Shown here: positions 26,786 through 34,193 of the stretch, one piece after another
Layout: each line of letters begins with the position of its first letter
Numbering within the stretch: position 1 is the stretch's first letter
IMG/VR virus record: IMGVR_UViG_3300033402_000340
DNA from: a virus
DNA length: 34,903 nt
Strand: one strand, 5' to 3'
Notes under the pieces: generated by a model
Databases searched by the model: none
The model's input: only the letters and a program-made list of their open reading frames with translations
Told to the model about the DNA's origin: nothing
Program-made: the position numbers and the translations under genes

Positions 26786-26858
26786 GTCTCAGAAGCTAAT
26801 ATGGAATAGCACTCGCCTGTTAAGCGAGAGAAAGTAGGATCGTTACCTACCTGAGACG
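26786..26858 (+). tRNA. tRNA-Asn-like (anticodon GTT) with non-canonical T-loop ATCGTTA (A54/U58 swapped)
   Basis: Perfect acceptor GTCTCAG/CTGAGAC, D stem GCTA/TAGC, anticodon arm CTCGC CTGTTAA GCGAG. Confidence 0.55.
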
Positions 26859-26907
26859 CTGATGAGTTCCGTAAACTGGAACTCGTCGAATGTAGAGATC
26901 GATAGAA

Positions 26908-27045
26908 CGAGGAGATAGGGGGTCGGTCCCCCACTAGCAAAGGGAGCTAGCCGAAAGGCGCAGCCGGCATTGCCACTCGGCTCTGAAAAGAGCCAACCAG
27001 CAGTTCCTACAAGCAAAAATCCAGGTTCGACTCCTGGCTCCTCGA
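26908..27045 (+). ncRNA. 138-nt tRNA-like unit A. It has an acceptor, D-arm and anticodon-like arm (loop AAAGGGA), then a ~65-nt module with two GNRA hairpins, then a T-arm and acceptor.
   Basis: Acceptor CGAGGAG/CTCCTCG. Module GCC-GAAA-GGC ... ACTCGG GGCTCT-GAAA-AGAGCC ... CCAGCAGTTCCTACAAGCA. T-arm CCAGG TTCGACT CCTGG. Confidence 0.4.
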
Positions 27046-27161
27046 CCGTGGTTAAGGTTCTGACTTCGAATCAGGCCGCCTTAATCGGGTAAGTGCAACC
27101 CAACCGTTATAGTCACCTAACTCATAGGGAGTGCCATGGTGAGTGTAATGGAGCACTTCAC

Positions 27162-27232
27162 GCCGTCGTAGTTCTCTGGGAGAACCCCGCTTTCGTAATG
27201 CGGTGAGGGTGGTTCGACTCCACTCGGCGGCT
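27162..27232 (+). tRNA. tRNA-Thr (anticodon CGT)
   Basis: Acceptor GCCGTCG/CGGCGGC, D stem GTTC/GAAC, anticodon loop TTCGTAA flanked by U.U, T-loop TTCGACT. Confidence 0.72.
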
Positions 27233-27260
27233 CTGAGGCACCCAATCAGTGATGCTTACA

Positions 27261-27330
27261 CGCAAGATGTTCCTAGGTGGAACGTCGGTCTGCTAAACCG
27301 AAGGGGCGAATTCGAAACTCGCTCTTGCAA
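27261..27330 (+). tRNA. class-I tRNA with serine anticodon GCT (4-nt variable loop)
   Basis: D stem GTTC/GAAC, anticodon arm TCGGT CTGCTAA ACCGA, T-arm GCGAA TTCGAAA CTCGC, acceptor 6 of 7 paired. Confidence 0.5.
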
Positions 27331-27363
27331 AAATCAGCATCACAACTCGGGTGCCACAATTTT

Positions 27364-27500
27364 GGGGATCTTGAGCAATGGCAGCTCAACAGTTGGTTAA
27401 ACTGTGTCGCAAGACAGTCCGGCATCGCAACTCGGTCCTGAAAGGGACCACCAAGCGGTTCCCACAAGCAATCCTGGTTCGAATCCAGGGATCCCCGCCA
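27364..27500 (+). ncRNA. 137-nt tRNA-like unit B with encoded CCA, with the same inserted two-GNRA-hairpin module as unit A
   Basis: Acceptor GGGGATC/GATCCCC then G CCA. D stem GAGC/GCTC. Arm ACAGT TGGTTAA ACTGT. Module GTC-GCAA-GAC ... CAACTCGG GGTCCT-GAAA-GGGACC ... CCACAAGCAAT. T-arm CCTGG TTCGAAT CCAGG. Confidence 0.45.
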
Positions 27501-27526
27501 AGGCAGCCAACCCGTAGTGCTAACAC

Positions 27527-27601
27527 GCAAAAGATGCTCCTAGGTGGAGCATTTCCCCGGAACGGAAACACTGGTCGGTTCAAATCCGACCTTTTGCACC
27601 A
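27527..27601 (+). tRNA. class-I tRNA with anticodon GGA (serine codon UCC), C33 instead of U33, encoded CCA
   Basis: Acceptor GCAAAAG/CTTTTGC, D stem GCTC/GAGC, anticodon arm TTTCC CCGGAAC GGAAA, T-arm GTCGG TTCAAAT CCGAC. Confidence 0.55.
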
Positions 27602-27647
27602 AAAACAGCACTACAACTCGGCTGCCTTAAACTTTCACAAAACACAT

Positions 27648-27785
27648 GAGGGATATGGGCGACGGCCGCCTACCAGTCAGTAAAACTGGCGCCGCAAGGC
27701 GTTCCGGTATTACAACTCGGCTCCTCACGGAGCCACTCAGTAGTACCCACAAGCATACTTGGTTCGACTCCAAGATCCCTCTCCA
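27648..27785 (+). ncRNA. 138-nt tRNA-like unit C with encoded CCA and the same inserted module
   Basis: Acceptor GAGGGAT/ATCCCTC then T CCA. Arm CCAGT CAGTAAA ACTGG. Module CGCC-GCAA-GGCG ... ACAACTCGG GGCTCC-TCAC-GGAGCC ... CCCACAAGCATAC. T-arm CTTGG TTCGACT CCAAG. Confidence 0.45.
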
Positions 27786-27886
27786 ATGAATTCCATGCGA
27801 AACATGGCCGCGAGGCGTCAAGCCAAGCGTAAATTTCGATCAGCTGCCCATAAGTGGCTGACTCGAAAGAGTAAAGGAAAAGTTAC

Positions 27887-28018
27887 GGGGACTTTTGGGC
27901 ACGGCGCCCAACTAGACTCACACTCTAGGCCGCAAGGCAGTTAGGTATTGCACCTCGGCCCTGAAAGGGGCCATCCAGCAATCCCCACAAGCATCCGGTT
28001 CGACTCCGGAAGTCCCCC
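27887..28018 (+). ncRNA. 132-nt tRNA-like unit D (canonical anticodon loop CTCACAC, Val-CAC) with the same inserted module
   Basis: Acceptor GGGGACT/AGTCCCC. Anticodon arm CTAGA CTCACAC TCTAG. Module GCC-GCAA-GGC ... CACCTCGG GGCCCT-GAAA-GGGGCC ... CCCCACAAGCA. T-arm TCCGG TTCGACT CCGGA. Confidence 0.45.
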
Positions 28019-28106
28019 AATCTCCGAACGAGCGACCTCCCATGCGCGGCCCGCCGTTCAACGTAAGCAGCCTTTAACGTTGGCGCATCAGCGTGTAAAG
28101 GCAAAC

Positions 28107-32627: not shown

Positions 32628-32796
32628 CCGAGCAGGTTCGAAACTGCTTAGGGACGGTACTCAGCAAGGAAATGGCGCGGGCGGAGAGATCCGTTCGATC
32701 ATGATCACTTGTCGCCCTTCACCAAAAGGAGGATTCCCGTAACGGCCTCTTGAGGGTGTAAAGATTCTGCAGAATCAAGTGAGTACCACCAATCTT

Positions 32797-33132
32797 CGGA
32801 GTAGATGAGACGATCGCTGGCCGAAAGGCGAGAGGAAAGTCCGGGCTCCACAGGGCAGGGTGCTGGTTAACGACCAGGCGGAGTGATCCGACAGAAAGTG
32901 GAACAGAAAGAAAACCGCCACGGTTTCGACCGTGGTAAGGGTGCAAAGGCAGGAGTAAGACCCTGCCCAGTTTGCAGTGATGTAAACTGCGCTAAACCTC
33001 ACCTGGAGCAAGGCCAACAGAGAGCGGTTTGCCCGACCGATGCTCTCGGGTGTGCTGCTTGAGCTCGTCAGCAATGCCGAGCCTAGATGAATGATCGTCC
33101 TCGACAGAACCCGGCTTACACATCTACTCCAC
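32797..33132 (+). ncRNA. rnpB: RNase P RNA, bacterial type A (M1 RNA homolog)
   Basis: Near-identity to the conserved E. coli M1 blocks: GAGGAAAGTCCGGGCTCCACAGGGCAGGGTGC, ACAGAAAG, GGTAAGGGTGCAAAGG, AAACCTCACCTGGAGCAAGGCCAACAGAG, and GCTGCTTGAGC...GCCTAGATGAATGATCGTCCTCGACAGAACCCGGCTTA. P1 pairs GGAGTAGATG with CATCTACTCC. Confidence 0.9.
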
Positions 33133-33143
33133 TTATTCGAAAC

Positions 33144-33214
33144 GGGCTGCTAGTACAACGGGCGTACACTCCCCTCGCACGGGAGGGATCGGGGTTCGAT
33201 TCCCCGGCGGTCCA
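33144..33214 (+). tRNA. tRNA-Ala (anticodon CGC)
   Basis: Acceptor GGGCTGC/GCGGTCC, D stem GTAC/GTAC, anticodon arm CTCCC CTCGCAC GGGAG, T-arm CGGGG TTCGATT CCCCG. Confidence 0.78.
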
Positions 33215-33319
33215 CAATGCGGTGGCTGGTGCCACTCCTTTGAAGGTCGCGATTGGAGGCTCGGAGTTTTCTGCTCATCTCGTACGGCGCCGTACGAATG
33301 GGTGGTGCTGAGAAGAAGA

Positions 33320-33358
33320 TCGTGGACGCTTAGATACTAGGTTCGATTCCTAGCGCAG
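33320..33358 (+). other. orphan tRNA 3' terminus (T-arm CTAGG TTCGATT CCTAG plus acceptor-like CGCAGTG) without a recognisable 5' body
   Basis: Only the 3' module is foldable. Confidence 0.25.
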
Positions 33359-33363
33359 TGCCA

Positions 33364-33437
33364 AGGGCCCATAGCTCACGTTGGGAGAGCGCCGCGCTGG
33401 CAGCGCGGAGGTAGACGGATCGTCACCGTCTGGGTCC
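33364..33437 (+). tRNA. tRNA-Ala (anticodon GGC) with non-canonical T-loop ATCGTCA (A54/U58 swapped)
   Basis: Acceptor GGGCCCA/TGGGTCC, D stem GCTC/GAGC, anticodon arm CCGCG CTGGCAG CGCGG. Confidence 0.72.
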
Positions 33438-33530
33438 ACTACAGCTGACGAGGAACCTCGGGGTCGCTCCTGAGGATTACTTCGAGCAGCTGGGCTGAAT
33501 GTAGCTCAAGCGACGGGGCTACACTCGCTT

Positions 33531-33601
33531 TGGGGTGTCGTCTAATGGCAGGACGGCGGTCTCTGGAGCCGCCTATTGGGGTTCGAGTCCCTACACCCCA
33601 G
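33531..33601 (+). tRNA. tRNA-Gln (anticodon CTG), U1:A72, discriminator G
   Basis: TGGGGTG...CACCCCA G closely resembles E. coli tRNA-Gln. 3-bp D stem, T-loop TTCGAGT. Confidence 0.85.
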
Positions 33602-33610
33602 CAAAGTTCA

Positions 33611-33658
33611 CATTGGGGCCATAAGTCTAATGGCAGGATCAGGCCTTTGCAAGGCTTG
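33611..33658 (+). pseudogene. tRNA 5' fragment (acceptor TGGGGCC, Gln-like D-arm, anticodon arm AGGCC TTTGCAA GGCTT) with no 3' half, directly upstream of a hairpin and the HNH gene
   Basis: No T-arm or 3' acceptor strand follows. Confidence 0.4.
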
Positions 33659-33699
33659 TGTCTAGATTTGCAATAATAAATCCATTGCAAATCTAGACA
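33659..33699. promoter_or_regulatory. perfect 16-bp hairpin TGTCTAGATTTGCAAT-AATAAATCC-ATTGCAAATCTAGACA whose 3' arm ends at the ATG of the HNH gene
   Basis: Read directly from the sequence. Confidence 0.6.
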
Positions 33700-34130
33700 T
33701 GGAGAAGAAATTTTGTTCTAAATGCGGAGAGACAAAATCTACGGATTCTTTCAATAAAAAGAAAGCAGGATATAGCAGCGTCTGTCGTGATTGCCAAAAG
33801 ATATATTGGTCAGAATGGTATTCTAATCCTTCTAATCGTAGAAAACATATTTCTCAGAGTAGAGAACACTCTAAAACCCGAGAACAAAAATTAAAAGAAA
33901 TGGTCCGAGAAGCCAAGAATAAACCTTGTGCCGACTGTAGACTAATTCACCCGTACTGGCGTATGCAATTTGACCACTTGCCTGGAACAGTCAAAATGGG
34001 CACCATTAATGAAATATGGAAACATTCTGAAGAAGTGGTTTTGGCAGAAATCCAAAAATGTGAGGTAGTTTGCGCTAATTGTCATGCAGATAGAACGTAC
34101 CATCGACAAATGACCAAAACGGGGTTGTAG
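33699..34130 (+). CDS. HNH homing-type endonuclease
   Basis: Zinc-ribbon N-terminus. HNH core FDHLPG...N...VVCANCHADRTYH. The stop overlaps the start of tRNA-Ala. Confidence 0.75.
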   Translation: MEKKFCSKCGETKSTDSFNKKKAGYSSVCRDCQKIYWSEWYSNPSNRRKHISQSREHSKTREQKLKEMVREAKNKPCADCRLIHPYWRMQFDHLPGTVKMGTINEIWKHSEEVVLAEIQKCEVVCANCHADRTYHRQMTKTGL

Positions 34131-34193
34131 CTCAATCGGGAGAGCGCGAGCTTTGCAAGCTCGAGGTTGCCGGATCGTTCCCGGTCAACTCCA
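34121..34193 (+). tRNA. tRNA-Ala (anticodon TGC) with non-canonical T-loop ATCGTTC (A54/U58 swapped)
   Basis: Acceptor GGGGTTG/CAACTCC, D stem GCTC/GAGC, anticodon arm CGAGC TTTGCAA GCTCG. Confidence 0.72.

Follow-up and report, generated by a model that had tools for sequence, protein, structure and literature searches.

Reversed A54-U58 T-loops in three tRNA genes of a huge-phage tRNA array: probable functional tRNAs with a maintained alternative T-loop

The U54-A58 pair is taught as an invariant tertiary pair of transfer RNA (tRNA), and it is a near-absolute requirement in functional selections and in riboswitch T-loops. Three tRNA genes in a viral DNA sequence of 34,903 nt, the IMG/VR record IMGVR_UViG_3300033402_000340 (hereafter, the window), carry A54 and U58 instead, which raises the question of whether these genes are damaged or use another way of closing the T-loop. 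We found that the exchange recurs coordinately in more than 160 other tRNAs, and it therefore looks like a maintained design and not like damage. Judging from sequence comparisons, the three genes probably encode functional tRNAs with a selectively maintained alternative T-loop.

All three genes lie on the plus strand and were called by both ARAGORN and Rfam/Infernal. The first, tRNA-Asn(GUU) at 26786..26858, has the T-arm GTAGG/ATCGTTA/CCTAC, with the T-stem at 26834-26838 and 26846-26850 and the loop AUCGUUA at 26839-26845, placing A54 at 26839, U58 at 26843 and A60 at 26845; it also has A8, U15-A48 and G73. The second, tRNA-Ala(GGC), is located at 33365..33438, one base downstream of the start at 33364 given in the original prediction, which had been made from the letters of the window alone. 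Its T-arm is GACGG/ATCGTCA/CCGTC (T-stem 33414-33418 and 33426-33430; loop AUCGUCA at 33419-33425; A54 at 33419, U58 at 33423, A60 at 33425), and it has G3:U70, A73, G16, an extra D-loop U and C15-A48. The third, tRNA-Ala(UGC) at 34121..34193, differs from the other two in having C60: its T-arm is GCCGG/ATCGTTC/CCGGT (T-stem 34169-34173 and 34181-34185; loop AUCGUUC at 34174-34180; A54 at 34174, U58 at 34178, C60 at 34180), with G3:U70, A73 and a normal A15-U48. The Infernal scores of the Asn, Ala(GGC) and Ala(UGC) genes are 52.4, 45.2 and 61.5 bits, respectively, while those of the other window tRNAs range from 29.9 to 63 bits (threshold 29). In the Infernal alignments of the swapped genes, an A faces the consensus U54 and a U faces the consensus A58, so the A54/U58 loops noticed originally are borne out by the ARAGORN calls, the alignments and the T-arm registers alike. 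All the remaining approximately 18 window tRNAs have T54 and A58 in a loop of the form TTCRANN.

Since the motif TTCRA occurs nowhere in the three swapped tRNA sequences, a canonical loop is unreachable by re-folding, an outcome the original prediction had asked to be looked for. The minimum free energy fold is the cloverleaf with a 7-nt T-loop for the Asn and Ala(UGC) genes; for Ala(GGC) the centroid structure is the cloverleaf, and the minimum free energy fold has a 6-bp T-stem and a 6-bp acceptor stem. The folding Z-scores of the three genes are -4.2, -2.9 and -2.2. Each gene has a 7-bp acceptor stem, a 4-bp D-stem, 5-bp anticodon and T-stems, and 7-nt anticodon and T-loops. U33 and a purine at position 37 are kept, as are the elbow residues G18G19, U55, C56, G57 and G53-C61, and the aminoacylation identity elements are present, namely, G3:U70 with A73 in both Ala genes and the GUU anticodon with G73 in the Asn gene. 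In place of the reverse-Hoogsteen pair U54-A58 with Y60, the genes have A54, U58 and either A60 or C60. They also lack the initiator-like combination of A54, A58 and A60, having U58 in 3 of 3 genes and A60 in 2 of 3, and the UA_handle type of T-loop motif, as their positions 1 and 5 are A and U. The cloverleaves had been described as perfect, which is true of the stems but not of A8 and U15-A48 in Asn or of C15-A48 in Ala(GGC). CCA is not genomically encoded in any of the three, and post-transcriptional CCA addition would therefore be needed. In the Asn gene, A8 replaces the near-universal U8 and stands with A14, so that a second tertiary pair of the reverse-Hoogsteen type (U8-A14) is altered in the same molecule.

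These features bear directly on the idea that the genes are decaying pseudogenes or artefacts of the detectors. The A8 and U15-A48 of the Asn gene would fit decay, as would the presence of a second, canonical Asn(GUU) gene at 26282-26356 (ARAGORN) and an insert-bearing Asn(GUU)-like gene at 27364-27499, and the nearest relative of this phage is without the swap. But all three genes have intact stems, contrary to what is expected of tRNA pseudogenes, and have kept their identity elements and elbow residues; the two exchanged positions changed coherently, and a third position changed with them; covariation in the class is strong (see below); and neither Ala(GGC) nor Ala(UGC) has a second copy in the array, each being the sole gene for its anticodon among the 38 tRNAs called on the full contig. 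We thus consider decay or artefact very improbable.

How widespread is the exchange? We pooled 2,301 distinct, well-registered tRNAs from all loci, with the reservation that ARAGORN may under-call swapped loops, and found U54/A58 in 1999, A54/U58 in 167, mostly from phages, A54/A58 in 106 and A54/C58 in none. As a sample unbiased with respect to T-loops, we used 79 loci fetched via EF-Tu, whose 431 distinct tRNAs include 424 with U54/A58, four with A54/U58 (His, Ile, Asp and Met) and two with A54/A58. Given A54 at about 1.4% and U58 at about 0.9% in this sample, the two together are expected at about 1e-4 under independence, versus 0.9% observed; A54 and U58 thus co-occur above chance. When viral contigs were scanned for A54 in tRNAs with the D-arm TAGCTCA...GGGAGAGC, position 58 was always A or T, never G or C.

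The identical A54/T58 pattern was found in 64 viral contigs (a complete count) versus 25 loci among 185,579 bacterial and archaeal species, each represented by one genome. Nine of these 25 cellular matches are a single tRNA-Ala(UGC) of metagenome-assembled genomes (MAGs) of Phycisphaerae or Planctomycetaceae, four of which adjoin tRNA-Ile(GAU); in one Planctomycetaceae MAG (locus L208), the order is tRNA-Ile, swapped tRNA-Ala(UGC) and 23S ribosomal RNA (rRNA). Five others are Spirochaete tRNA-Val(UAC), two are Actinomycetota tRNA-Phe inside a Glu-Asp-Phe cluster, and at least 6 of the 25 lie in dense, mobile-looking tRNA arrays with 15-27 tRNAs per 8 kb. The reversed pair is therefore present in essential tRNAs of a few bacterial lineages, and is far denser in phages and tRNA arrays.

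Swapped tRNAs also cluster by genome. In viral loci indexed by a swapped tRNA, 39 of the 433 other tRNAs (9.0%) are swapped as well, compared with 4 of 431 (0.9%) in the EF-Tu loci (odds ratio 10.6, p = 1.5e-8), and the figure is 4.4% in loci indexed by an A54-A58 tRNA. Hence, although all three window genes are indeed swapped, counting them as three independent genes, as had been done, holds for the local view only, since in many phages the swap clusters by genome. The swapped isotypes are mainly Ala, Ile, Lys, His, Phe, Val, Met, Asn, Gly and Glu; our first pool held no swapped tRNA among 154 Arg, 81 Gln, 53 Trp and 66 Tyr, and one swapped Arg(UCG) was found outside it. A BLAST search with a concatenated swapped-tRNA query led to two further phages, namely, the cultured Ruegeria phage RpAliso, whose annotated tRNA-Pro(CGG) is swapped (GTGGG/ATCGTGA/CCCAC), and the 634.8-kb phage LR745206.1, in which 4 of 19 tRNAs are swapped in the stretch examined. 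The deposited records annotate the swapped genes as plain tRNAs. In a BLAST search of the window tRNA-Ala against deposited phages, the nearest tRNAs (Rctr197k, Bellamy and Trina) were canonical.

Further non-canonical T-loops stand beside A54-U58 in two arrays, one from a Planctomycetota MAG (L210) and one from a Xanthobacteraceae MAG (L224), including several UGCGAGU loops, with G55 for U55, and the loops GUCGGCA and GCGGCAC, with G54 and G58. The G54-G58 combination resembles one reportedly recovered in the in vivo selection of Zagryadskaya (2003).

Among 123 swapped tRNAs, U55 is present in 122, C56 in all 123 and a purine at position 57 in all; the D-loop GG is found in 99% of the class, and elbow residues are kept in 95-100%. 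Position 60 changes along with 54 and 58: U60 occurs in 1 of 159 swapped tRNAs versus 1179 of 1470 canonical type-I tRNAs (p = 2e-97). The class divides into two forms by this position. In the C60 form, R15-Y48 is normal in 80%, whereas in the A60 form a normal 15-48 pair is found in 12%, A48 in 49% and a purine at position 16 in 41%; the association of A60 with A48 is significant at p = 1.3e-5. All the chromosomal bacterial cases are of the C60 form, as is the window Ala(UGC), while the A60 form, which includes the window Asn and Ala(GGC), has been seen in phages and tRNA arrays only.

Covariation was assessed in an alignment of 31 distinct swapped tRNA-Ala(UGC) from phages and bacteria, where the invariance of the D-arm is partly due to ascertainment but the covariation of the acceptor, anticodon and T-stems is not. 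In this set, 99.4% of the stem cells are paired, 12 of the 22 pairs show changes on both sides, and the covariation score is 0.521 versus 0.133 after shuffling, a score reached by 0 of 500 shuffles. When the partner columns are shifted by 1-3 positions, pairing falls to about 45%. G3:U70 is present in 30 of the 31, and A54, U55, C56 and U58 are invariant. Recurrence, covariation, purifying selection, clustering by genome and the occurrence in a 23S-adjacent tRNA-Ala(UGC) are thus all observed. The earlier argument for selection rather than decay is supported by these data, that is, by the 167 distinct recurrences, the retention of U55, C56 and R57, the co-change at position 60, the covariation among the 31 Ala(UGC), and the fixation of the swap in the Planctomycetaceae tRNA-Ala(UGC) that lies between tRNA-Ile and 23S rRNA.

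The steps by which the exchange may have come about are hinted at by near-identical tRNA pairs of differing loop class. Three such pairs differ solely in A58 versus U58, and in another the whole T-loop has been replaced. One of the three is formed by the orthologous tRNA-Ser(GCU) genes of two Variovorax arrays (L216 and L217), with the loops AUCGAUA and AUCGUUA. Nearly all A54-A58 loops read AUCGAAA, and A48 accompanies them in 77%. These small numbers fit a path from U-A through A-A, with A60, to A-U. A different pressure, restriction-site avoidance, was considered on the grounds that the swap removes TCGA and creates GATC; we rejected it by reasoning, since most tRNAs of the same genomes keep TTCGA and the A-A loop keeps TCGA.

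Taken together, we propose that the three genes would encode working elongator tRNAs whose T-loop is closed by A54-U58 instead of U54-A58, the rest of the elbow (G53-C61, U55, C56, G57 and G18G19) being kept. The exchange would be accompanied by a change of U60 to C or A, the A60 form also remodelling 15-48, usually to A48, so that the changes at 54, 58 and 60, with or without 15-48, may form a coherent module and not a set of random mutations. Selection would keep this module in many tRNAs of phages and in a small number of bacterial housekeeping ones, and the module would be reachable via the A54-A58/A60 loop AUCGAAA, which is one base away and occurs in the same genomes. We infer that the swapped tRNAs would be charged and would decode normally. 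Lacking U54 and A58, they would therefore have neither m5U54 (made by TrmA/TrmFO) nor m1A58 (made by TrmI), and they may show an altered 54/58 face to enzymes that read or unstack the pair, such as TruB and TrmA.

Some points weigh against this proposal. At Asn, Ala(GGC), Ala(UGC) and Arg(UCU), the loops are canonical in contig L007, the nearest relative of the phage, whose EF-Tu is 88% identical and whose tRNAs stand in nearly the same order, so the swaps arose or arrived after the split and are recent in this lineage; the 54/58 survey of this and related genomes that had been suggested thus finds the swap in the three window genes and canonical loops in the nearest relative. Moreover, a D-arm pattern was the source of most of the sampled sequences, and many sequences are related to one another, so that the numbers given above are not numbers of independent events. 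Finally, the in vivo T-loop selection of Zagryadskaya et al. (2003) is said to have recovered U-A, G-A and G-G, and not A-U. As to how the swaps came about in this lineage, the identity of syntenic tRNAs between the phage and L007 is 58-96% in general and 67-74% for the swapped genes, that is, inside the general range, and change in place and replacement are therefore indistinguishable.

The window Ala(UGC) could have been acquired from, or have converged on, a gene of a Planctomycetota-like host that already had A54-U58, in which case the feature would be inherited and not a phage innovation. The gene is 81-88% identical to the other swapped Ala(UGC), chromosomal Planctomycetota included, in a set ascertained by D-arm; its identity to three chromosomal Planctomycetota genes (L208, L202 and L223) is 82-86%, with the variable region and T-arm identical to those of L223, compared with 73% to the syntenic gene of the nearest phage relative. 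Also in line with capture, the C60 form of this gene is the only form in chromosomal genes. But tRNA-Ala is a constrained sequence that looks much alike everywhere, the comparison set was picked by a D-arm pattern that the window Ala(UGC) also matches, and the A60 form of Asn, Ala(GGC) and an Arg(UCU)-like gene (see below), which is the form of phages and arrays, would be left unexplained. Host capture or mimicry is thus a tentative possibility. That the host is a member of the Planctomycetota has itself only indirect hints in its favor, namely, the tRNA-Ala similarity, an FGE-sulfatase open reading frame (ORF) and MAG-binned arrays.

Another possibility that had been raised is a pairing with the phage-encoded EF-Tu, whose gene (30609-31886) does lie within the same tRNA array; the reversed T-loop would then mark tRNAs that this factor prefers. 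The comparative data speak against such a match: relatives with 83-88% identical EF-Tu are canonical at the syntenic tRNAs, the 79 EF-Tu loci hold just 0.9% swapped tRNAs, no EF-Tu was found in 1.48 Mb around 162 viral A54-tRNA loci, and the swap also occurs in bacterial chromosomal tRNAs. Furthermore, the contacts of EF-Tu in established structures are with the acceptor and the T-stem backbone, and bases 54 and 58 are not among them. Co-adaptation with EF-Tu is therefore extremely improbable.

Why might phages favor the reversed pair? In line with the altered recognition suggested originally, it may keep a host factor that reads U54/A58 from acting well on the phage tRNAs, while leaving translation intact; candidates include a T-loop tRNase, TrmA, TruB and TrmI. 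The skew of the matches (64 viral contigs versus 25 in 185,579 species genomes, with at least 6 of the 25 in mobile-looking arrays) is in favor of this idea, and the clustering of swapped tRNAs by genome suggests a factor at the level of the genome or the host. A precedent for a tRNase acting on the T-loop is the toxin CdiA-CT E479, which cuts the T-loop next to T54 (PMC9086364), and, by analogy, phage tRNAs evade anticodon nucleases by mutations of the anticodon loop (PMC10264068). The phage also invests heavily in tRNA upkeep, encoding RtcB, RNase P RNA and EF-Tu. Against this, only 3-4 of about 40 tRNAs are swapped here and 5-9% in other positive phages, so the bulk of the phage tRNAs would stay exposed to such a factor, and the same loop is fixed in bacterial housekeeping tRNAs. 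No T-loop-targeting anti-phage system was found in the literature searched, and the phage-tRNA evasion paper does not mention the T-loop. Nor does any neighboring protein family track the swap: an all-against-all clustering of 5,116 ORFs from 155 loci yielded no family that does so beyond single phage clades. We regard an anti-defence or anti-host role as rather doubtful. Also unlikely is the combined view that the reversed pair is a second solution for the elbow, favored by phages as it hides tRNAs from host proteins reading U54/A58 or from a surveillance linked to them, as a counter-defence parallel to escape at the anticodon loop.

Returning to the maintained alternative T-loop as the preferred reading, we compared it with known systems. 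The swapped tRNAs share with the canonical elongator T-loop of bacteria and phages (T54-Psi55-C56-R57-A58-N59-Y60) the 7-nt loop, the 5-bp stem, G53-C61, U55, C56, R57, G18G19, the cloverleaf and the aminoacylation identity elements. They differ in the exchange of 54 and 58, in having C or A where U60 would stand, in the loss of R15-Y48 from the A60 form, often with A48, and in offering no substrate base for m5U54 or m1A58. They also resemble the module of eukaryotic initiator tRNA and tRNA-Ala(AGC), in which A54/A58 and R15/A48 are combined with purines at positions 16 and 60 and an additional D-loop U (PMC7566577, PMC7912444); this module is reported to be absent from bacteria and archaea (PMC7566577). 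A54, purine 60, the coupled A48, purine 16 and the extra D-loop residue are all found in the swapped class, and the window Ala(GGC) has G16, the extra U, A48 and A60. As in the eukaryotic case, tRNA-Ala is over-represented among the swapped tRNAs, and the phage AUCGAAA loops match the eukaryotic initiator/Ala(AGC) kind letter for letter. Unlike the eukaryotic module, however, the swapped tRNAs have U58 and not (m1)A58, they occur in phages and bacteria, and the C60 form is without a eukaryotic counterpart. T-loops of the UA_handle type in rRNA, RNase P and riboswitches have a strong requirement for Y-A at positions 1-5 (PMC2615604; bioRxiv 2022.12.26.521914); the likeness lies in the five-nt motif, the non-canonical 1-5 closing pair and the long-range pairing of position 3, but the order is Y-A there, versus A then U in the swapped tRNAs. 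Phage tRNAs that escape at the anticodon loop (PMC10264068, PMC11555353) likewise depart from the host consensus at conserved loop positions and are functional; in their case the nuclease target is demonstrated and the site is the anticodon loop, not the T-loop. In the searchable literature, full text included, we found no description of A54-U58 or of a T-loop reversal in phage tRNAs.

The window is a segment of a huge phage genome, the relatives found via EF-Tu being IMG/VR contigs of 250-436 kb. Its sequence is also present on a 62.9-kb ENA contig, a JGI contig and a Logan contig; a conservation estimate from these copies was dropped, as all are 100% identical and therefore uninformative on conservation. 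The tRNA array runs from about 25.7 kb to the end of the window, interspersed with HNH genes, the EF-Tu gene and an RNase P RNA. In the window, 18 tRNAs are called by ARAGORN and a further three by Rfam, and the array on the longer contig L270 (window coordinates minus 23698) has 38 ARAGORN tRNAs with the same three swapped. A fourth swapped candidate lies on L270 past the window end, a tRNA-Arg(UCU)-like gene at about 13985-14055, equivalent to window positions of about 37683-37753, whose T-arm is AGAGG/ATCGTTA/CCTCT (loop AUCGUUA). This gene and a tRNA-Arg(CCG)-like gene at L270 15341-15408 (about 39039-39106, likewise past the window end) are about 68 nt long and have a reduced D-arm CTGATGGACAG.

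The RtcB RNA ligase gene (14088-15326, plus strand; Pfam E = 1.6e-123) is about 10 kb upstream of the array. The RNase P RNA at 32798-33134 on the plus strand is a complete bacterial class A RNA (287.6 bits, model positions 1-367), and it sits in the array immediately 5' of tRNA-Ala(CGC). An RNase P RNA (263 bits) is also encoded at 5585-5937 of a related phage contig of 252 kb (L002), together with a transfer-messenger RNA (tmRNA) at 18255-18609. In the window, an ARAGORN call of a permuted tmRNA at 33123-33756 is very probably spurious; the called region takes in three tRNA genes together with a piece of an HNH ORF, and Rfam gives no tmRNA above threshold there. L007 has a group I intron at 6329-6559. 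An ORF of 852 aa on the minus strand of the window (18581-21139) contains major vault protein domains (MVP_shoulder 9.6e-30, Vault_3 8e-10), which is unusual in a phage.

The array also contains tRNA-like genes of unusual architecture. Four of them (26908-27047, 27364-27499, 27648-27784 and 27887-28020) share a conserved structured insert of about 63 nt between the anticodon arm and the T-arm, which has one hairpin with a GCAA tetraloop and a second, long one in which the stems flanking a conserved internal loop co-vary. After in silico excision of the insert, ARAGORN recognizes the genes as Pro(AGG), Asn(GUU), Tyr(GUA) and Val(CAC), and it calls no other Tyr gene in window positions 1-34903 or L270. 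Several of these genes are without U33 (loops UGGUUAA and CAGUAAA), and the insert genes have no Rfam match. Two further tRNA-like genes, at about 28190-28330 and 28655-28795, are circularly permuted, with the order T-arm, acceptor 3' strand, CCA, short linker, acceptor 5' strand, D-arm and anticodon arm; the first has CCA and the second CAC. One half of the insert hairpin of the four insert-bearing genes forms their leader and the other half their trailer, and rejoining the permuted genes in silico gives tRNA-Gly(UCC) and tRNA-Phe(GAA). The permuted genes together with RtcB suggest cut-and-ligate tRNA processing in this phage; we found no report in the literature of permuted tRNA genes in phages. 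In addition, two tRNAs (27261-27330 within 27240-27355, and 27527-27601 within 27505-27626) have long, complementary flanks (GGCACCC..CAGTGATGCT and AGCATCAC..GGGTGCC, and an equivalent second pair), with the motif ACAACTCGG common to both sets. In both cases, the tRNA seems to be embedded in a larger hairpin akin to the insert element.

The reversed pair would be a genuine surprise for tRNA structure, and one that comparative evidence supports well. With the co-varying positions 60, 15-48 and 16, it would mean that the tRNA elbow has at least one further viable architecture, which is found in essential tRNAs of bacteria, with a concentration in the tRNA arrays of phages. It offers a defined target for structural biology, it predicts tRNAs that are naturally without m5U54 and m1A58, and it bears on how tRNA finders and pseudogene filters handle phage tRNAs. 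The swapped tRNAs may serve as candidate scaffolds for orthogonal tRNAs. They also make it a testable idea that host factors reading the T-loop shape the evolution of phage tRNAs, for which Ruegeria phage RpAliso on Ruegeria pomeroyi DSS-3 provides a cultured system.

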